Notes under the pieces: model-generated
Database searches by the model: none
What the model was told of the DNA's origin: nothing
Seen by the model: only the letters and a program-made list of their open reading frames with translations
Virus record (IMG/VR): IMGVR_UViG_3300026026_000012
Coordinates: 1 to 31,231 of that record
Reading direction: 5' to 3' (one strand)
From: a virus
Lineage: Duplodnaviria > Caudoviricetes
DNA length: 31,231 bases
Translations under genes and position numbers: made by a program
Shown: piece by piece, positions 1-8,173 of the stretch
How positions within the stretch are numbered: position 1 is the stretch's first letter
Layout of the letters: the number at the start of each line of letters is the position of its first letter

Positions 1-312
1 CCTCCAACCGAGATCAACGCGCTTGAGGGTACCCACGGTGTCCTGCGACCACACGGCGGAACCTGCGCCAAGCTTGATTGGATCGTATGTGGCGGAGAGT
101 CGGGCCCCAACGCTCGCCCCTGCCACGTCGAGTGGATTCGCTCGGTCGTGCGCCAGTGCGCGGAGGCCAAAGTTCCGTGCTGGAACAAGCAGCTGGGGAG
201 AGAATCGCGAGACAGCAACTGCATGATCTTTCCGCTACGCGACCGCGCCGGAGCCGATCCGTACGAGTGGCCCGCTGACCTGCGCGTACGGCAGCGCCCG
301 GTGGGGTGGTAA
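1..312 (+). CDS. DUF5131 / phage Gp37-Gp68 family protein, C-terminal part (5' truncated by window)
   Basis: My translation of frame 1: ...LDWIVCGGESGPNARPCHVEWIRSVVRQCAEAKVPCWNKQLG...GADPYEWPADLRVRQRP; TAA at 310-312. DWxIxGGESGxxARP and KQxG are family hallmarks. Not in the ORF track. Confidence 0.88.
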   Translation, partial: PPTEINALEGTHGVLRPHGGTCAKLDWIVCGGESGPNARPCHVEWIRSVVRQCAEAKVPCWNKQLGRESRDSNCMIFPLRDRAGADPYEWPADLRVRQRPVGW

Positions 313-314
313 TC

Positions 315-503
315 ATGAGTACGACAACGCAGGGACAGCAGCCGAGCGAGCCTGCGCCGGGTCTCGACCTGGCGGAGCGATGGCTCAAGCGAGAGGCTCA
401 CGATGAGGACGTGCTCGAACTGCCTGAGAAGCGCGCAACGTCCATCGTCGCCGAGCTAGACCGACTGCGAGCCCTGGTCCGCAGCCTGGGAGGTGAGCCG
501 TGA
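315..503 (+). CDS. Hypothetical phage protein (62 aa)
   Basis: ATG 2 nt after the previous stop; GTGA overlap with the next ORF. Confidence 0.65.
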   Translation: MSTTTQGQQPSEPAPGLDLAERWLKREAHDEDVLELPEKRATSIVAELDRLRALVRSLGGEP

Positions 504-760
504 CACTTGTGCAATCGATGGTGCGAGAACTCGACCGACTGCGCGCCGAGAACGCCGAACTCCGCCGGCAGCTCGAAAAGGCGAAGTCGGGATGGCGCGT
601 GGTGCGGACGGTGTACGCCGCGGGGAATACGCCAGAGTATGCGACGAAAAATGTCATGTCCGAACGATGGCACCTCACCCCTGAGGATGCGGGGATAGAC
701 GTCTTCGACGACGAGGCCATCTACGCCGTCACGCTGACGGCCAGGGTGGTGACGCCGTGA
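500..760 (+). CDS. Hypothetical phage protein with N-terminal coiled coil
   Basis: GGAGG SD; GTGA overlaps at both ends; ELDRLRAENAELRRQLEK. Confidence 0.7.
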   Translation: MTLVQSMVRELDRLRAENAELRRQLEKAKSGWRVVRTVYAAGNTPEYATKNVMSERWHLTPEDAGIDVFDDEAIYAVTLTARVVTP

Positions 761-1179
761 CGCCCAAGAAAATGTTCGTGTGCCAGAAGGATTACGAGAA
801 ATTGCTCAGTCTCGGAGCCACACCGGATGAATTGGCAGATCTCCAGGTCGTGGTCGATCGCTTCGGAGCGATACCGGAGGGCAGAGTCTGCCTGATGCAG
901 GAACCTCCGCTGGTCGCATTCAAGGCGGTAGAGACCCACGTCGAGACCGGAGAGGACTGGCGCGCGTCCATTCGCTACAGCTGCGAGATGCAGATGCCAA
1001 AGCTTCCCATATTGTTCTTCGGGGTGGACCCAAGCTATGTGGTGCCCAGCCGGCGCCAGGTCTGGACTGCGCTGTGGCGTCTGTCGTCGGAGCGCTCTCG
1101 GGCTCGGATGCGGCGACGGTGCGACTGGCGCTCAAACGTGAAGCGCGTGAAGCGGGCGCGCGAGCTGGCCAGGAGGTGA
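757..1179 (+). CDS. Hypothetical phage protein with Arg-rich C-terminus
   Basis: GTGA overlap with the upstream gene; fills the operon. Confidence 0.6.
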   Translation: MTPKKMFVCQKDYEKLLSLGATPDELADLQVVVDRFGAIPEGRVCLMQEPPLVAFKAVETHVETGEDWRASIRYSCEMQMPKLPILFFGVDPSYVVPSRRQVWTALWRLSSERSRARMRRRCDWRSNVKRVKRARELARR

Positions 1180-1183
1180 CGCC

Positions 1184-1345
1184 ATGAAGAAGTCCGACCG
1201 CGAGGCGCTGCGGAAGCGCATCGAGCGCAACGACTGGGATGCAAGCAACGATGGCGTGTACAAATTGGTCTCCCGCGAGGTAGACCGAGCCGTCCGTAGT
1301 GCGCGCCTCAGACGCGTCGTGCTTCCGAAGGGCGGTGGCAAGTGA
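1184..1345 (+). CDS. Small basic hypothetical protein (53 aa, MKKSDREALRKRIERNDW...VVLPKGGGK)
   Basis: AGGAGGTG SD at 1171-1178, ATG 1184, TGA 1343-1345; too short for the ORF track. Confidence 0.7.
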   Translation: MKKSDREALRKRIERNDWDASNDGVYKLVSREVDRAVRSARLRRVVLPKGGGK

Positions 1346-1404
1346 CCAGAAGATGCTGGTGGGCCAGCAGGAGACCCACGTGGCGCCTCGCGGGTGGTAC
1401 ATGA
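1342..1404 (+). CDS. Possible 20-aa coupling peptide (MTRRCWWASRRPTWRLAGGT)
   Basis: GTGA overlap with the upstream stop and ATGA overlap with the csf1 start. Confidence 0.3.
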   Translation: MTRRCWWASRRPTWRLAGGT

Positions 1405-2381
1405 ACGCAGCTACGATGATCTGGAATGCAGCGGGGCGCCCCGTGGTGGAAGGCGTACAGAACGTCTCGGCCGCGTGTTACCTGTGTGGCTCGGTAGCGA
1501 CCGGAATGCTGTCGAAGGCAAAAGTGCTCACGCCCACATTCACGGGCCACAGCGACGCGAAGGCGCTGTCTAGCTCATGGGTATGTGTCCCATGCTCGTG
1601 GTCGCTGAACGATGCGAGCGCTGTCGTGGGGCGCGACAGCGGCAAGTGGCGGAACTTCTCTCACGCTGTCGCCGAAGGGAAGTGGCTGACATTCACGAAA
1701 AAGGTAGAGGAGCGCCGTCGACTGTCCGCGCTGCTCTGCGCGCCGCCCTCGGGGCCATGGTGCGCGGTGGTAGCCGAGAGCGGTCAGAAGCAGCTGGCCT
1801 ATCGAGCGCCGGTGAACCACAGCGCGCATCGGTGCTCGGTGCAGTTCGAGGAGCAGCGGGTTGTCTACCAGCCGGCAGCCATGCGCTCATTGCTCGGGCG
1901 CATGGAGCGGATGCTGACCGTGTTCAGCAAGACTGAGGTGGCGAGCGGTGACTGGGACACGCGAAGGATCGGGCTCTATGGATGTGAGCGATTTGCAGCC
2001 GATGCCGAGGAGATGCGCCAACTGCGCGGATCGGCGCTGTTCTCATTGGCGATGTTCTTGGCCGCAAGGCCGGATGATGAAGGAAAGGACGAAAATGATG
2101 GAACGAACGGACCTGAGAGCGAAAGCGGTGAACCTGATAGGGGCCATCTGGTCGACGGTGGACCACGAATCGTGGGCGAAGCAGCGCCTGGAGATCTGGC
2201 GCATCTTCCAGGAGAACATCGAGGCGAGCGCGTCGACTACGCCGGACCTAGCGAGGTTCATCAACTCTCTCTCTTCGGCGATGCGATCGACTCCGGCCAG
2301 CCGGGAAGCGTCGGCGGTGGCGATCGCGGAGTGCGTGGCGGCCGAGTGGGCGGGAAGACTGCTGGACCTGATGCGGGATGA
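1401..2381 (+). CDS. csf1: Type IV CRISPR-associated Csf1 (Cas8-like large subunit)
   Basis: Zn-finger pairs CYLC and WVCVPC, KWRNFSH, PPSGPWCAVVAESGQKQL, VQFEEQ, FSKTEV, LRGSALFSLAMFLA; first gene of the csf cluster. Alternative start GTG 1380. Confidence 0.85.
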   Translation: MNAATMIWNAAGRPVVEGVQNVSAACYLCGSVATGMLSKAKVLTPTFTGHSDAKALSSSWVCVPCSWSLNDASAVVGRDSGKWRNFSHAVAEGKWLTFTKKVEERRRLSALLCAPPSGPWCAVVAESGQKQLAYRAPVNHSAHRCSVQFEEQRVVYQPAAMRSLLGRMERMLTVFSKTEVASGDWDTRRIGLYGCERFAADAEEMRQLRGSALFSLAMFLAARPDDEGKDENDGTNGPESESGEPDRGHLVDGGPRIVGEAAPGDLAHLPGEHRGERVDYAGPSEVHQLSLFGDAIDSGQPGSVGGGDRGVRGGRVGGKTAGPDAG

Positions 2382-2487
2382 ATCTGCGACCGTGGTAGCG
2401 ATGCTCCGCGTGCGCCAGCAGGAGGCAAAAGAAGCGCGAGAGGTGTACGAATCTCGCGTAAACTCTGACCGAGTGGAGGCTTGCTGA
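2095..2487 (+). CDS. cas11: Type IV-B small subunit Cas11-like, all-helical (130 aa)
   Basis: AAAGGA SD before ATG 2095/2098; position between csf1 and csf2; IWRIFQENIEASASTTPDLARFINSL and LLDLMRDE; stop overlaps the csf2 start. Confidence 0.75.
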   Translation: MMERTDLRAKAVNLIGAIWSTVDHESWAKQRLEIWRIFQENIEASASTTPDLARFINSLSSAMRSTPASREASAVAIAECVAAEWAGRLLDLMRDESATVVAMLRVRQQEAKEAREVYESRVNSDRVEAC

Positions 2488-3473
2488 TGATGGACACGAA
2501 AAACTATCGATACGAGGGAACCATCACGGCCATGTCGTCGATCGCCCATGGTGGCGAAACGAAGAGCACGACCCAGATCCTGCGACGTGAGAAGGTGGTG
2601 GCGCCTGACGGTAGCGTGGTCAGCATCCCGATCTACTCGGGGAACGCAATGCGCGGCATCCTACGCGACTGCGGGATGAGGTTCATGCTCCGCTGCCTCG
2701 GCGATCCCGAGTTGTCCATCGGGGCGCTGCACTTCCTGTTCTCGGGCGGCTCGCTGACTGGCAAGCCGATGGCAGGCGAGAAGGGCGCGAAGAAGCTCGG
2801 TGAGTCCACTAGCTCCGTTCCTATCGGGGATGCTCGCGAGCTGATGAGGGCGATCCCGCTGGTCGGCGTGTTTGGCGGAGCATGCGGCTCGATGATCATG
2901 GAGGGAAAGCTTCAGGTCGGCAAGGCGGTGCCCATCTGCCACGAGGCCGAGCGATTGATCCCGGCCAAGTTCAGACCATCATCGACGCTCACCATCTGGG
3001 AGTACCTGCAGACCGAGGCGTATACCAGGCGGGACGACTCCAAACGCGAGGAGATGCGCTCCCTGCTTGGAGCCGATGACCGGAAGCTGCTCGACTCCGC
3101 GCAATCGAAGTCCAGGCAGAAGACCATCACCGAGCAGCCCGACCAAGACGTCGGTCAGCACCAGCAGATGCGCTACCACGTCCAGACGTTCGCGGCGGGG
3201 ACGCGATTCTACTGGTGGCTCGCCCTCCGGGCCGCGACCGATCTCGAGTTCGAGGCCATGGCGTCGTGCCTGGTCGAGTTCGCTCGGTCGCCCGCGATCG
3301 GAGGCAAGACGGCGGCCGGCCACGGCCAGATCGAAATCAAGCTGGATGGCTGGTCCGAGATCGGGACTGCGGCGGTGCAGACCGATGCCATCGGCGCCCC
3401 GCTGGGAAAGGCGTACGCCGACCACCTCACCGTGAACAAGGACGCGATCGTCAAGCTGCTCGGGAGGATTTGA
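2487..3473 (+). CDS. csf2: Type IV CRISPR-associated Csf2 (Cas7-family RAMP backbone)
   Basis: ITAMSSIAHGGE, IPIYSGNAMRGILRD, LFSGGSL, PLVGVFGG, GKLQVG, YTRRDD, QMRY...AGTRF, and Gly-rich loop IGGKTAAGHG. Confidence 0.93.
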   Translation: MMDTKNYRYEGTITAMSSIAHGGETKSTTQILRREKVVAPDGSVVSIPIYSGNAMRGILRDCGMRFMLRCLGDPELSIGALHFLFSGGSLTGKPMAGEKGAKKLGESTSSVPIGDARELMRAIPLVGVFGGACGSMIMEGKLQVGKAVPICHEAERLIPAKFRPSSTLTIWEYLQTEAYTRRDDSKREEMRSLLGADDRKLLDSAQSKSRQKTITEQPDQDVGQHQQMRYHVQTFAAGTRFYWWLALRAATDLEFEAMASCLVEFARSPAIGGKTAAGHGQIEIKLDGWSEIGTAAVQTDAIGAPLGKAYADHLTVNKDAIVKLLGRI

Positions 3474-3475
3474 GG

Positions 3476-4132
3476 ATGGACACACCGGAGACCCTGGGGA
3501 CGCCAGACCTGCGCCGGATTCTCCGGTGCGACAGAAAGACCGTGCTGAGGTGGATTCGACTTGGCAAGCTCGAGGCGACGAAAGACGAGCGTGGACGTTG
3601 GCGCGTGGCCATGGACGCAGCCGTGCGCCTGCGCAAGCAGCATGGCACCAGACGCAATGGATACGGTCCATTTGGCCCTCGGCACGGCGGTGAGTGGTAT
3701 ACGGCATCAGAGCGCGAGCTGCTGCGCTCTGAACTGTCCCACGAGGAGGTCGGGAAGCGTATCGGACGCTCGACGATGGCCGTGGAAATCCAGCGTATTC
3801 GCATGCGCCAGGGGAAGACGAGAAACCTGGACATCAAGCGCCGCGCAGCCGAGGTCCAGGAGGGGGCGGCTGGGAAGTGGTTTATCTCGCCCCACGCGGT
3901 CAAGAGATATTGCGAGCGGGTGGCGCCGGGCACGGCGTTCAAAGACGCCCTCGCGATCTTGATCGCCATGTCGGAGGAGGCGAACAAGAGAGCGCGTCGG
4001 CTGCCCAGCGGCGCACTGGAATACGATGTTCGCGGCATCCGCTGCGTGGTGGTTCCGTCGAGAAATGGCCGCAAGCTTCCGGTGTTGGTCACTGTGAAGG
4101 CGAGGAGGCCGGCATGCGCCCCATCGTCGTGA
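3476..4132 (+). CDS. Multidomain protein: excisionase/MerR-like HTH, second HTH, putative RelE/DUF4258-like C-terminal domain (218 aa)
   Basis: GGGAGG SD; ATG 2 nt after the csf2 stop; DRKTVLRWIRLGKLEATKDERGRWRV; WYTASERELL...EEVGKRIGRSTMAV; FISPHAVKRYCERV...LPVLVTVK. Confidence 0.75.
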   Translation: MDTPETLGTPDLRRILRCDRKTVLRWIRLGKLEATKDERGRWRVAMDAAVRLRKQHGTRRNGYGPFGPRHGGEWYTASERELLRSELSHEEVGKRIGRSTMAVEIQRIRMRQGKTRNLDIKRRAAEVQEGAAGKWFISPHAVKRYCERVAPGTAFKDALAILIAMSEEANKRARRLPSGALEYDVRGIRCVVVPSRNGRKLPVLVTVKARRPACAPSS

Positions 4133-4761
4133 CAGCGAAACTAGGGGGCGTCGGGGTGATGGGGGATGGGTTCTTCCCTCTCGATGGGCTGCTGTCGTAT
4201 GCGGTCCATTGCGAGATGGGCAGACCACAGGTCGAGGAGGCTCCGGCGGTCGACTGCCTGGAACGACGTGGAGAGGGTGAGGACTGGTACTATGCAGCCT
4301 CGTTCGCAGTGGCCGAATGGAAGGGAGAGGGGAAATCGTTCTGGGTGAAGCGGCCCAGGTACAGCGAGTACATCACGCGCAGTGAGGCGAAGAGTGTGAC
4401 AGTTAATAGCGGCCAGTTCAAGGGCTACAACATGCCCGTGTTCTACCTGCTCGCCGATGAGATCCGCTGGTACTGCGTTGGCGAACCGGCGCTCATCCTT
4501 GACCTGCTGAGCACGCATGTCGGAAGCGTGGGCAAGAAGCGGTCGCAGGGCTGGGGGCTGGTATCTGCGTGGACGGTAGAACCGCACGACGAGGATTGGA
4601 GCGAGGTTCGCGACGGCGTGGTAACGCGCGCGCTCCCGGCTGTGGTCGCTCGCGACCGCGGGTTGGACGGCGATCCTGGATGGTACGGCGTGAAACCTGC
4701 ATACTGGGATGTGCGCAACCAGGGAGACGTGTTCTTGCCACCTGGTAAGCCAACAACATGA
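4114..4761 (+). CDS. csf3: Type IV CRISPR-associated Csf3 (Cas5-family RAMP)
   Basis: GAGGAGG SD; MRPIVVTAKL, PLDGLL, WYYAASFA, SGQFKGYNMP, WYCVGE, VGKKRSQGWGLV, RALP, KPAYW. Confidence 0.88.
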   Translation: MRPIVVTAKLGGVGVMGDGFFPLDGLLSYAVHCEMGRPQVEEAPAVDCLERRGEGEDWYYAASFAVAEWKGEGKSFWVKRPRYSEYITRSEAKSVTVNSGQFKGYNMPVFYLLADEIRWYCVGEPALILDLLSTHVGSVGKKRSQGWGLVSAWTVEPHDEDWSEVRDGVVTRALPAVVARDRGLDGDPGWYGVKPAYWDVRNQGDVFLPPGKPTT

Positions 4762-4785
4762 ACGAGCGAAAGGAGGTGAGGGAAA

Positions 4786-4902
4786 GTGGCCAAGGGAAAA
4801 TCGATTCAGTCGACGAAGTCGAGAGGCGGAGCGGCGAAGGGGGGCAAGGGAGCGGCGGCGAGCGGCGGAGGGGGAGGATCGGGAACGGGAGGTGGGAGGT
4901 AA
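4786..4902 (+). CDS. 38-aa Gly/Lys/Ser-rich microprotein MAKGKSIQSTKSRGGAAKGGKGAAASGGGGGSGTGGGR
   Basis: AGGAGGTG at 4771-4778, 7-nt spacer, GTG 4786, TAA 4900-4902; fills the gap between csf3 and cysH. Confidence 0.75.
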   Translation: MAKGKSIQSTKSRGGAAKGGKGAAASGGGGGSGTGGGR

Positions 4903-4907
4903 ACCAT

Positions 4908-5675
4908 ATGGACGAAGGCGAGCGGGCGCTGTACCTCGCGGTCGCTCGCCTTCGGTCGCACCTGGCGAAGGTAGAGCGAGCCAAGGTGCGCATCCGTGAG
5001 GCGTTCGCGCAGAGCAAGCGTGCATACGTATCGTTCTCTGGAGGCAAGGACAGCACCGTGGTGCTGCACCTGGCGCAACAGATCCAGCTTGACGTGCTCT
5101 CTTGCTTCTACGACTCCGGGGCAGAGTTGCCGAGCACATACCAGCTCGTGCACCACGTGCAGGACCACTGGACCACCGTCTTGAGTTGGTGCCATCCAAG
5201 GCGGACCATCCTGGATATCCTGCGCGCGGTTGGGGTCGGCAGGGAGGATGCCACCGAGTGGCTGAGTGCTGGTCAGATCGCAGACGAGATCATCAAGGAT
5301 GTTGCCGAACAAGCGGCGCGCGAACTCGAGACTGACTGCTATCTCCTAGGCCTGCGGCGTGACGAATCCGACGGTCGCAAGGCGGACCTTACCAAGAGGG
5401 GCTCGCTCTACCGGATGGCCAATGGCCAGCTCCGGTGTTGCCCGATTTGGGACTGGACCGACGACGATGTGTGGGCGTATATCGTGAGCAATGCGGTCGA
5501 ATACAACGAGGCGTACGACAGGACGTCGCTGCGGCCAAGGCGTGAGATTCGCGTCTGTACGTACGCCGGGAACACGTCCGAGCGCTACGGGCGGTTCGCG
5601 TGGCTGAAGCGTGAATATCCTGACCTGTTCCGCCGGCTATCAGCAGAGTTCCGTGGGATCGCAGCGATGACGTGA
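4908..5675 (+). CDS. cysH: CysH-like / PAPS-reductase-family PP-loop protein of type IV-B loci (255 aa)
   Basis: PP-loop SFSGGKDS, LGLRRDESDGR, PIWDWTDDDVWAYI, YNEAYD; GGAGGT SD at 4895-4900; no C-terminal ECGLH. Confidence 0.9.
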   Translation: MDEGERALYLAVARLRSHLAKVERAKVRIREAFAQSKRAYVSFSGGKDSTVVLHLAQQIQLDVLSCFYDSGAELPSTYQLVHHVQDHWTTVLSWCHPRRTILDILRAVGVGREDATEWLSAGQIADEIIKDVAEQAARELETDCYLLGLRRDESDGRKADLTKRGSLYRMANGQLRCCPIWDWTDDDVWAYIVSNAVEYNEAYDRTSLRPRREIRVCTYAGNTSERYGRFAWLKREYPDLFRRLSAEFRGIAAMT

Positions 5676-5681
5676 GCGATC

Positions 5682-5718
5682 TAGTTGACGACCCGCCACC
5701 AGACGCGGCACCCTGACG
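5682..5718 (+). promoter_or_regulatory. 37-nt direct repeat copy 1, promoter-like (TTGACG-N18-CACCCT)
   Basis: TAGTTGACGACCCGCCACCAGACGCGGCACCCTGACG, 32/37 identical to 5869-5905; all mismatches fall between the putative -35 and -10. Confidence 0.65.
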
Positions 5719-5720
5719 CC

Positions 5721-5869
5721 CCTTGCGGAAACCATCCTCCCCTGGCAAGATCCTCAGTGTCTGGCTGCTAATTTTGCTTGAGGTGACGGCCTCCATGGGA
5801 GGCGAAACGTTGAGCAGATCGGTAGAGGCCCTGTGCGAGCTGTTGAGCACTCGCACAGGGCTTTTCTTT
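5721..5869 (+). ncRNA. Candidate ~150-nt structured small RNA of unknown family
   Basis: Lies between the promoter-like repeat and a terminator; stems CTTGC/GCAAG (5722-5749), CCTCAG/TTGAGG (5752-5783), GCCTCC/GGAGGC (5789-5803) plus the terminator stem; no convincing ORF. Confidence 0.5.
5828..5869 (+). terminator. Intrinsic (Rho-independent) terminator
   Basis: Perfect 12-bp stem GCCCTGTGCGAG (5828-5839) / CTCGCACAGGGC (5850-5861) followed by TTTTCTTT. Confidence 0.88.
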
Positions 5870-5905
5870 AGTTGACGCCCCGTCGCCCGACGTGGCACCC
5901 TGACG
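5869..5905 (+). promoter_or_regulatory. 37-nt direct repeat copy 2, putative promoter for packaging/late genes
   Basis: TAGTTGACGCCCCGTCGCCCGACGTGGCACCCTGACG with extended -10 TGG-CACCCT; ATG at 5908 sits at the expected +1. Confidence 0.65.
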
Positions 5906-5907
5906 GA

Positions 5908-6144
5908 ATGCAACTCTCGAGCATCCAGACGTCGGGACAAGACCGCGACCGGTACGCTCACAAGCTGTCAAGGGACGGGCTGGTAGGTACCCGGACGCGC
6001 GAGCAATCGCGGCGCCGTGAAGCAGGCCAACGCCACGCGCGAAGGGGCATCGGCTCCGAAGGGCTCGGCCACGTGGAAGAAAAAGAAGGCGCTCAACTCC
6101 ACCACGTCCAAGACGGCACCGCAGGAACCGGACTGGCTCTCTGA
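5908..6144 (+). CDS. Possible leaderless hypothetical protein (78 aa)
   Basis: ATG 6 nt after the putative -10; no recognisable motif; competing frame 6017-6565. Confidence 0.35.
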   Translation: MQLSSIQTSGQDRDRYAHKLSRDGLVGTRTREQSRRREAGQRHARRGIGSEGLGHVEEKEGAQLHHVQDGTAGTGLAL

Positions 6145-6342
6145 CCACCTCTTCAGGATTGGGTACAGGGAAGCGGAGTCCCACTTGCGTCGTGCGCCCT
6201 GGGTCGCTCACGTATTGGACTTCGTATGTTTTTGGATTTCTGTCGTAACAGAAAATACAGAAAGCACTGGACAGCACGAACAAAGAACGGTATCGATAAA
6301 ATATCCATGTCGCATCCAGGAGACGTCTCGGAAACGCCAAAG

Positions 6343-6801
6343 ATGGCAGACGGAGAGCCAAAGCGCGTCCAGACCCAGGCCCAGCGAGACGCTCTCAAGC
6401 AGCACGCGATCAAACCCGGAGAGGTCAGGAACAAATCAGGAGCGAACGGCTGGAAGAAAGCTCAGTCTAGGATCGCTAGGTTCCTTCGCGAGGCAGACCC
6501 GGACGATCCGCGCAGGTCAAGCCGGTGGGACAACCTTCTCCTGGCGGCGTACGAGACGGCCCTGATTCGCGGCCTCAAGGGCTCGGCGGATCGCAAGCTG
6601 CTGATCGAGCAGGTTGCAGGGAAGGCGCGTGCGCAGCTCGATCTGAACGCCAGCGTAAGCGGACTGCGCGTGTTGGCAGTGTTGCCCGACAACGGACGCG
6701 GACCTGGAGACCCAGAAGATCCAGACGACGGAACTGGCGGCGCCGCCCCAGCAGCGGCCCCAGCGGTGGATACCGATGCAAGCGACGGCACAATCGAGTA
6801 G
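6343..6801 (+). CDS. terS: Terminase small subunit (DUF5681-like motif)
   Basis: IKPGEVRNKSG motif, LPDNGR near the C-terminus, overlaps terL; start may be 6307. Confidence 0.72.
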   Translation: MADGEPKRVQTQAQRDALKQHAIKPGEVRNKSGANGWKKAQSRIARFLREADPDDPRRSSRWDNLLLAAYETALIRGLKGSADRKLLIEQVAGKARAQLDLNASVSGLRVLAVLPDNGRGPGDPEDPDDGTGGAAPAAAPAVDTDASDGTIE

Positions 6802-8173
6802 CGACTACGATCTCGTGGTCGGCCCGCAACCTGGTTTCCAGACGCGGTTTCTGTCGTCGCGAGCCGACATCACGATCGGAGGCGGGGCTGGCGGCGCAGG
6901 CAAGAGCTACGCCGAGCTGCTCGCACCGGTGAAGTGGGTTCATCTGCCGGACTTCCGCTGTACGTTCTTCCGCCGGTCGATGGAGGAAATCCGCGACCAT
7001 GGCGGGCTCTGGGACGAGAGCGTGAAGCTGTATTTGCCGATGGGCGCCCGACCCATAGAGCACACGGCGGAATGGCGCTGGCCGCTCGGGGCCCGCATTT
7101 CGATGGATCACCTGCAGTACGAGCACACGGTCTTCGGGAAGCAGGGGTCCCAGATCGCGCTGCTCATCTTCGACGAGCTTACCCACTTTCTTGAGTCCCA
7201 ATTCTGGTACATGCAGAGCCGAAACCGCAGCGGATGCGGCATCAGGCCCTACACGCTCGCGACGTGCAACCCAGACCCGGACTCGTGGGTGGCGAAGCTG
7301 ATCGCATGGTGGATCGACCAGGACACCGGATTCCCGATTCCTGAGCATGCGGGGAAGCTCCGCTACTTCACTCGCCTCGATGGCGAGATGGTGTGGGGTA
7401 GCAGCAAGCGCGAGGTCCTAGCCCAGCTTCCACCCGGCTCAGGAGTGACCGCCATCGACGTGCAGAGCCTGACCTTCATTCCCGGAACGCTCGACGACAA
7501 CCCGCGCATGGTCGACAAGGATCCGAAGTACCGCGGGAAGCTGCTGGCCATGACCCGCGTGAATCGCGCGCGGTTGCTCGAGGGAAACTGGAAGGTGCGG
7601 GCAGTGTCGGGCAGCTACTTCCGCAGGTCCGACGTGAAGATCGTCAAGACGGTGCCATCAGACATCCGCGCGGTGACGAGGCGCTGGGACCTGGCCGCCA
7701 CCGAGCCAACGGATTCGTGCCGTGATCCTGACTGGACGTGTGGCGTGAAGATGGGTCGCTATCCAGATGGCAGGTTCATCGTCATGCACGTCGAGATGGC
7801 GCGCAAGCGGGCAAACGACGTGCGCGCGCTCATCAAACGGCTGGCCGAACAGGACGGAGAATCGTGTTCCGTCGGCGTCCCCCAGGACCCAGCACAGGCC
7901 GGCAAGGAGCAATCCGAGAGCTACGTTCTATTCCTCGCCGGGTTCAACCCATACGCCGACCGCGAGACGGGCGACAAGGAGACGCGCGCCGAACCGTGCG
8001 CAGCTCAGTGGCAGCACGGCAACATCGACGTGCTCGAGGGCGCGTGGAATGAGCAGTTTTTCAGCCAGCTCGAAGCCTTCCCGGACCCCAAGGTTCATGA
8101 CGACGCCGTCGACGCGCTCTCCGGTGCCTTTCGCCGAGTGCTCGAAGACGACGACCCATTCCGCTATTACTGA
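6776..8173 (+). CDS. terL: Terminase large subunit
   Basis: PQPGFQ, Walker A GGAGGAGKS, Walker B LLIFDE, motif III ATCNP, nuclease WDLA and HDDAVDA. Confidence 0.96.
   Translation: MQATAQSSSDYDLVVGPQPGFQTRFLSSRADITIGGGAGGAGKSYAELLAPVKWVHLPDFRCTFFRRSMEEIRDHGGLWDESVKLYLPMGARPIEHTAEWRWPLGARISMDHLQYEHTVFGKQGSQIALLIFDELTHFLESQFWYMQSRNRSGCGIRPYTLATCNPDPDSWVAKLIAWWIDQDTGFPIPEHAGKLRYFTRLDGEMVWGSSKREVLAQLPPGSGVTAIDVQSLTFIPGTLDDNPRMVDKDPKYRGKLLAMTRVNRARLLEGNWKVRAVSGSYFRRSDVKIVKTVPSDIRAVTRRWDLAATEPTDSCRDPDWTCGVKMGRYPDGRFIVMHVEMARKRANDVRALIKRLAEQDGESCSVGVPQDPAQAGKEQSESYVLFLAGFNPYADRETGDKETRAEPCAAQWQHGNIDVLEGAWNEQFFSQLEAFPDPKVHDDAVDALSGAFRRVLEDDDPFRYY

Follow-up and report, generated by a model that had tools for sequence, protein, structure and literature searches.

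Organisation of the locus

The window, by which we mean the whole stretch of 31,231 nucleotides analysed here, is a 31-kb virus record that carries terminase and major head genes together with an operon in the order csf1, cas11-like, csf2, HTH gene, csf3, small ORF, cysH (Table 1). By its genes the locus is a member of type IV-B, with all three Csf matches lying under the curated cut-offs. The csf1 ORF is open from GTG 1299 and its tail overlaps cas11; the cas11-like ORF between csf1 and csf2 has no Pfam or NCBIfam match and is conserved across loci as judged by a profile built here.

Table 1. Features of the type IV-B operon in the window
Feature	Position	Strand	Basis or remark
csf1 (large subunit)	1401..2381	+	TIGR03114 E 2.3e-15, under curated cut-off
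cas11-like small subunit, start approximate	2077..2487	+	Position and profile built here from related loci
csf2 (Cas7)	2487..3473	+	TIGR03115 E 1.5e-18, under cut-off
Inserted HTH gene	3476..4132	+	Pfam HTH_17 E 5e-7
csf3 (Cas5)	4114..4761	+	TIGR03116 E 1.9e-14, under cut-off
Alternative ATG, cysH frame	4758..4760	+	Overlaps csf3 stop (ATGA); without Shine-Dalgarno site (-2.9)
Microprotein Shine-Dalgarno site	4770..4779	+	10-nt match, AAGGAGGTGA
Lys/Gly-rich microprotein ORF, 38 codons	4786..4902	+	GTG 4786 to TAA 4902; equivalents in 18 further loci
cysH Shine-Dalgarno site	4895..4900	+	GGAGGT, -11.6 kcal/mol, within last microprotein codons
cysH-like PP-loop enzyme, PAPS-reductase fold, 255 aa	4908..5675	+	PF01507 E 1.7e-24
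17-bp hairpin, begins 5 nt after cysH start	4913..4954	+	First 60 nt of cysH z -5.25

Some features of the operon and its surroundings are recorded here in their own right. A QLxLF-type motif near the Csf1 C-terminus (about 2260-2280 in the window), resembling a sliding-clamp-binding peptide, was seen in 28 of 136 loci as against 0/148 for Csf2 and 0/150 for Csf3; it overlaps cas11 in 22 of the 28 and so may be the shadow of a Cas11 motif. A small domain with a HAVxRY-like motif and no family match recurs as an operon insert (window 3476-4132, L011 4199-5008, and L450) and is in frame with CysH in three database entries (P0117, P0122, P0163). Just past cysH, at 5682-5905, two 37-nt direct repeats resemble tandem promoters (TTGACG, 18 nt, CACCCT); this two-copy repeat, 187 nt apart, is the only one in 4500-6300, and it flanks a stretch of about 150 nt that closes with a long hairpin and a T-run (z -2.8), a candidate small RNA. 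Its C-rich stretch could pair in part with the microprotein mRNA around 4870, though other sites pair equally well, and in L446 a similar promoter, short RNA and terminator arrangement seems to come after the operon. Positions 1-8000 of the window gave no Rfam match, no sigma-70 promoter was found at the microprotein region, and an RNA-element reading of the ORF region was rejected, its folding being no better than that of shuffles (z 1.14).

A small ORF with a strong Shine-Dalgarno site

An earlier note on this DNA had proposed that a hidden microprotein of 38 residues, placed at 4771..4902 and laid out as Shine-Dalgarno (SD) site, seven nucleotides and GTG, lies between csf3 and cysH. This layout and the 38-residue peptide were reproduced from the letters of the window, with AGGAGGTG at 4771-4778 followed by 7 nt and then by GTG 4786; the end at 4902 stands, while 4771 belongs to the SD site and the ORF itself begins at the GTG. 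At -17.2 kcal/mol the SD site is the strongest of three at or below -15 in the 31-kb window, both strands counted, and the remaining starts of the operon score -2 to -12 (energies calculated against the anti-SD sequence). The run X2 contig, possibly from the source sample, covers 4500-5169 with zero differences and zero gaps relative to the window, and the contigs over the ORF are variant-free in the parts they cover. The microprotein had no match in Pfam, NCBIfam or PHROGs, and nothing above 0.76 in the ESM Atlas.

The cysH SD site was found where the earlier note had put it, inside the end of the small ORF, 7 nt from ATG 4908. The same note had called the N-terminal extension of CysH from ATG 4758 apparently false. 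This start overlaps the csf3 stop, which speaks for it; it has no SD site, and the database product of the window cysH gene (P0001) begins at 4908. We grade ATG 4758 as probably a minor or unused start and the extension as probably false.

Recurrence beside cysH

Loci were gathered by CysH and Csf2 alignments and one DNA pattern and form a sample only, five of the scans giving the best 80; after deduplication they comprise at least 154 type IV-B loci. These loci are related to one another, so that p-values across them are overstated. An initial scan of whole loci, which filtered by composition and whose counts were taken before deduplication, placed a small ORF directly 5' of cysH in 7 of 80 type IV-B loci (the window included), with 2 matches elsewhere, and in 163 other PAPS-reductase loci it returned 3 matches, none adjoining the enzyme gene. 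A rule blind to composition, which asks for 8-45 codons, an SD of -10 or lower and a stop close to the start of the next gene, picked out 18 of 150 cysH junctions in all sampled loci as compared to 10 of 533 other cas junctions, and in the group that we call clade X 11 of 13 cysH junctions versus 0 of 37 others. For the final set L244 was dropped (45 codons, hydrophobic) and L012 and L450, which have a weaker SD, were added by inspection, giving 19 loci of which L263 is a doubtful member.

An equivalent ORF of 9-38 codons thus defined stands immediately before cysH in 19 of the 154 sampled type IV-B loci, in three gene orders, and the search for equivalents in homologous loci, which found 18 beyond the window, removed the main refutation that the earlier note had foreseen. 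All 13 loci of clade X (99% local support) carry it. On a CysH tree of 152 sequences the 19 ORF loci need 3 changes versus 18.1 for shuffled labels (an earlier count of 10, inflated by unlabelled database proteins, was set aside), and the ORF-bearing branch has 31 loci (support 89), 12 of them without the ORF; the window CysH falls outside clade X, beside L003. Whatever precedes it, be it csf3, csf2, an HTH gene or no cas gene, the ORF is always immediately 5' of cysH: it follows csf2 with csf3 downstream in L007, L013, L015, L089, L257 and L286, and in L459 it stands ahead of the whole operon. The small ORF tracks cysH rather than csf3. The hidden microprotein is, as the earlier note had it, tied to cysH and probably under selection, and we conclude from these sequences that an unannotated microprotein family, probably translated, is real and is bound to a single lineage of CysH enzymes in type IV-B.

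The remaining 135 of the 154 sampled loci are without the ORF, as is Skermania phage SPI1 (L351), the sole Csf2-matching record among 50,697 phage records, and the peptide is thus no general CasCysH substrate. SPI1 is of interest in itself as a cultured phage whose type IV-B operon is complete, its products being labelled hypothetical proteins (SPI1_40-44), and may serve as an experimental model. Close DNA relatives of the window operon were not found in viral contigs, so that the lineage of the window is known only from the proteins P0002-P0005, and 400 further genomes of the phylum of G001 held no clade match at E 1e-35.

The sampled operons also vary in ways that concern other genes. Type IV-B systems are described as rarely having Cas6; Cas6-family genes were seen in 13 of 146 type IV-B operons (L010, L024, L028, L033, L245, L299, L301, L303, L310, L314, L315, L317 and L334). 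A second PAPS-reductase gene, fused to DUF3440, is inserted in the operons of L022, L052, L163, L174, L205 and L377, with a ParB match in two cases. In L007, L013, L023, L029, L089, L165 and L196 cas11 and csf2 share one open frame, an apparent fusion, and in L164, L166-L169, L200 and L208 (mostly actinobacterial) cysH is opposite in strand to the csf genes.

Composition and selection

When the window peptide was compared with 5000 stop-free dinucleotide shuffles, its Gly content was matched by 41, its Lys content by 78 and its absence of acidic residues by 4, and its net charge was ordinary, being reached by 1601. A pooled test took in 16 ORFs and 364 codons, leaving out the near-duplicates L267 and L286 and the doubtful L263. 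Here Gly stood at 32.7% versus 16.6% in shuffles, Lys at 16.2% versus 10.2%, acidic residues at 3.8% versus 8.7% and hydrophobic residues at 5.2% versus 11.8%, each with 0 of 2000 shuffles as extreme, in a test that is partly circular as 7 of the ORFs were first found with the composition filter; the pooled net charge was no higher than in shuffles, 548 of 2000 reaching the same. Across the 19 loci the front half of the peptide is 26% Lys and the back half 49% Gly, and residue 2 is Ala in 11. The last residue is R in 10, K in 4, S in 3, Q in 1 and G in 1, and terminal Arg (9 of 16) is in excess over the last residues of cas genes (p 5e-7). The peptides share no conserved motif and vary in length between 9 and 38 residues, and 3 of the 19 are free of Lys. 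A likeness of KGGKG to the histone H4 tail, raised earlier, was rejected, KGGKG being present in 2 of 19 peptides only and not conserved, a chance product of low complexity.

Close pairs of loci bear on selection. Of the changed codons 4 of 5 are synonymous in the pair L012/L267 and 2 of 4 in L257/L286; for both pairs together 9 of 12 base changes fall at third positions and 6 of 9 changed codons are synonymous, small numbers all. In P0004, whose CysH is 78% identical to that of the window, the shifted frame of the gene-caller extension would allow both an unchanged first 8 residues behind Met and the Arg-stop end, as far as can be told from the protein. Since the changes in close pairs fall mainly on third codon positions, a translated and selected peptide is likely, and on this sequence evidence we hold with considerable confidence that the small ORF encodes one. 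The contrary reading, that the ORF is untranslated and the mere shadow of a CysH made from ATG 4758, draws on the overlap of that ATG with the csf3 stop and on a frame open through to cysH. It is highly improbable given the 10-nt SD at optimal spacing, the third-position bias, the extension of P0004, which differs compatibly with an unchanged peptide start and Arg-stop end, and the 5 loci in which the cysH frame is closed upstream and the ORF stays.

As had been claimed, all four Gly codons serve in the window (GGA 8, GGC 3, GGG 3 and GGT just once among 15). GGA is enriched over cas genes in the ORF set (23% versus 14%) and in the window (8 of 15 versus 12 of 73, p 0.004), a sign of selection on RNA; among all the ORFs GGC leads the Gly codons (60 of 119), and purine-rich codons for acidic residues are avoided.

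A conservation limited to composition, with a Lys-rich front and a Gly-rich back, is what might be expected if the peptide were a basic, disordered, non-covalent binder of DNA, RNA or the Csf-CysH complex, which would condense, chaperone or restrain its target. The strong SD and the several loci that adjoin terminase or head genes fit this role too. It leaves unexplained why the ORF tracks cysH and not the Csf genes, and the terminal Arg; members of 9-14 residues are short for a binder, and in ORF loci the charge of the Cas proteins is shifted in compensation by no more than about 1 per 100 residues. We regard it as a rather unlikely alternative that nonetheless deserves to be carried forward.

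How cysH starts

Of the 19 loci 9, the window among them, have a canonical cysH start between -17 and +5 nt from the small-ORF stop. In the other 10, a start farther downstream would remove part of the conserved first helix, and the usable starts lie either 5' of the strong SD or within the ORF itself; in every one of the 19 loci some in-frame canonical start exists upstream of or within the ORF. Relative to the ORF, 10 loci have cysH in the -1 frame and 9 have it in the +1 frame, and the microprotein SD beats every cysH-start SD in 18 of 19. Where L083, L257, L286, L263 and L272 might show the ATGA or GTGA stop-start overlap of other loci they have ATA, GTA or CTA in the cysH frame where the small ORF stops, and near-cognate re-initiation there is possible.

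Another reading is a leader for translation control, at whose strong SD ribosomes would assemble before being passed to or kept from cysH, the peptide itself being an inert by-product. In addition to the 9 close starts, this draws on the 17-bp hairpin that covers the cysH start region of the window and would favour translational coupling, on similar structure in L006, L257 and L286 (z -2.4 to -3.6), and on the GGA enrichment and a purine content of 0.56-0.77. Structure at the cysH start is however not general (median z -0.24 versus 0.13, p 0.037, among related loci), the prevalence of GGC and the avoidance of acidic purine-rich codons do not suit it, and a pure ribosome-delivery role explains poorly why the ORF persists in the 10 loci without a coupled start. 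We place the leader, like the non-covalent binder, among the less likely readings that still carry some weight.

Long unconserved N-terminal extensions are found in 61 of 129 clade proteins versus 1 of 38 others (clade-X profile, among the matches listed, 120 of 240). They read like shifted frames of the small ORF, three of them continuing into the upstream gene, from which it follows that the ORF is often nested in an apparent cysH frame and still kept. One might take these extensions, the 10 loci without a canonical cysH start near the stop, and a G GGA AAA heptamer in the window, where cysH is open in the -1 frame, to mean that the ORF is the N-terminus of CysH joined on by ribosomal frameshifting. 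This seems to us scarcely credible: the cysH frame is mixed across loci, the start-less -1 loci have no -1 slippery heptamer, an in-frame canonical start is available in every locus, and the cysH of the window owns an SD and an ATG.

The CysH-like enzyme

The predicted structure of the window CysH (pLDDT 94.7) has PAPS reductase 6vpu as its best match (E 1e-12), with ATP sulfurylase, FAD synthase, TtuA (5gha, E 1.6e-6) and TilS (2e21, E 3.9e-6) lower down; a DndC profile matched at E 1e-6 only. The SGGKDS PP-loop is nearly invariant in the CysH alignment, the ECG motif is absent (0/64) and no Cys is invariant, the best Cys column reaching 56%. This agrees with the published view, as set out in the available portions of PMC8175902, that CasCysH has no catalytic Cys and is proposed to act by adenylating a substrate. 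No clear in-frame fusion of peptide and CysH occurs among the 129 clade proteins (among the matches listed), and P0066 and P0087 have K/G-rich extensions, seen in the protein only.

The earlier note had offered the glycine-rich end as that of a ubiquitin-like or sulfur-carrier protein, and this form did not survive, the ubiquitin-like reading being rejected on conservation: 1 of 19 peptides has a Gly-Gly end, Arg or Lys closes 14 of 19, a Cys occurs in 1 of 19, and the enzyme has no ECG motif. A carrier resembling ubiquitin, ThiS or TtuB might still be activated at a C-terminal Gly-Gly, perhaps after trimming of the last residues, given that 13 of 19 have a Gly-Gly among their final 7 residues and that TtuA, the partner of TtuB, is a distant structural match of CysH. 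We think this very unlikely. The window peptide ends in Arg, the peptides, of low complexity and about 5% hydrophobic, are at 9-38 residues too short for a beta-grasp fold, and CysH is without the conserved Cys for an Fe-S cluster; furthermore, no peptidase or ThiF family was found by Pfam among 75 neighbours in 14 peptide loci or among 78 genes inserted in type IV-B operons, in both of which many ORFs or genes have no family at all.

A proposed co-substrate of CysH

We tentatively favour the possibility that the peptide is an over-produced co-substrate of an adenylating CysH. The small ORF would be translated into a disordered peptide, which the strong SD would supply in far greater amount than the enzyme, as for a substrate that is consumed; the Lys-rich half would hold nucleic acid and the Gly-rich half would reach into the CysH active site. 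Two routes can be envisaged. CysH might adenylate an oxygen of the nucleic acid, to be attacked in turn by an amine of the peptide, in the manner of TilS; alternatively, CysH might adenylate the C-terminus of the peptide, as in microcin C. By either route CysH is predicted to spend ATP in joining the peptide to a nucleotide or to Csf-handled nucleic acid.

What leads us to a consumed partner is the strongest SD, an ORF fixed before an adenylating enzyme and kept without a coupled start, and a constrained composition and last residue. In its favour we count the published proposal of adenylation by CasCysH, the results of the composition-blind rule, the tree and the position always 5' of cysH, the levels of Gly, Lys and acidic residues, the terminal Arg, the third-position changes in the close pairs, and the SD that beats those of cysH. 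Net charge, the GGA enrichment, the lack of a fusion and the Lys-free members tell against it, and the main objections are the 135 loci without the ORF and 9-residue members that share no motif. A more specific version, in which Cas proteins direct the covalent linking of a Lys/Gly peptide to DNA or RNA selected by Csf in one phage type IV-B lineage, for example as a phage DNA modification, we consider unlikely; if true, such Cas-directed conjugation of peptide and nucleic acid would be without a described counterpart.

The CysH-like enzyme is presented as the key to the unexplained type IV-B systems in the available portions of PMC8175902, PMC7937560 and bioRxiv 780106, which give no substrate for it. 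A missed gene fixed beside cysH across a whole clade provides a testable candidate substrate for this enzyme, and a reconstitution from the annotated genes would omit one component in the ORF-bearing lineage. About half of the CysH database entries of the clade, among the matches listed, have doubtful N-termini. Should the peptide prove to be no more than a translation leader, what results is a modest annotation fix.

Comparison with known systems

Such a peptide is undescribed in the available portions of PMC8175902, PMC7937560, PMC10848311, PMC12669027, PMC11437467, PMC12914056, PMC4010828, PMC7138817, PMC4231749, bioRxiv 780106 and bioRxiv 270033, to which supplementary locus tables or subscription papers could add a mention of the ORF. 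A close system is the Csf complex of Mycobacterium sp. JS623, a type IV-B system with CasCysH (PMC7937560, PMC8175902, as far as the available text goes), which shares with the window the csf1, csf2 and csf3 genes, a cysH-like gene with the SGGKDS PP-loop and no catalytic Cys, and a setting on a mobile element. Its cas11 has a candidate counterpart in the cas11-like ORF of the window, and beside the window operon no CRISPR array was seen in the stretches covered (Rfam over 1-8000, repeats over 4500-6300). The window differs in the extra microprotein gene before cysH, unmentioned in the accessible parts of those two papers, and in its setting on a tailed-phage contig beside terminase genes.

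In the mccA-mccB pair of microcin C, too, a tiny ORF that varies in length and is easily overlooked stands just 5' of the gene for an adenylating enzyme, and mccA is made in excess over mccB (PMC4010828, PMC4231749, in the portions available); the same excess would be expected of the window peptide, the adenylating activity being predicted. The window enzyme is however of the PP-loop/PAPS-reductase fold and not a ThiF-family MccB, the peptide set conserves no terminal Asn, as its last residues listed above make plain, and no exporter or immunity genes were seen in what is a Csf operon setting.

Among PP-loop enzymes, TtuA-TtuB and similar pairs (PMC7138817, in part) offer an enzyme that adenylates nucleic acid and could accept the flexible C-terminus of a small partner; the window lacks the Fe-S cysteines, the folded carrier and the Gly-Gly end. 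DndC, SspD, BrxP and TdpC (PMC12914056, in part) belong to the same PAPS-reductase domain family, there put to use in DNA backbone modification. The window operon differs from these in having no P-loop NTPase partner and no conserved Cys. An et al. (2025) reportedly deal with an adenylated DNA intermediate. In the lysidine synthetase TilS, also a PP-loop enzyme, the nucleophile is a lysine amine and not sulfur. TilS joins free lysine to tRNA and has extra domains, whereas the amine in the window would come from a ribosomal peptide.
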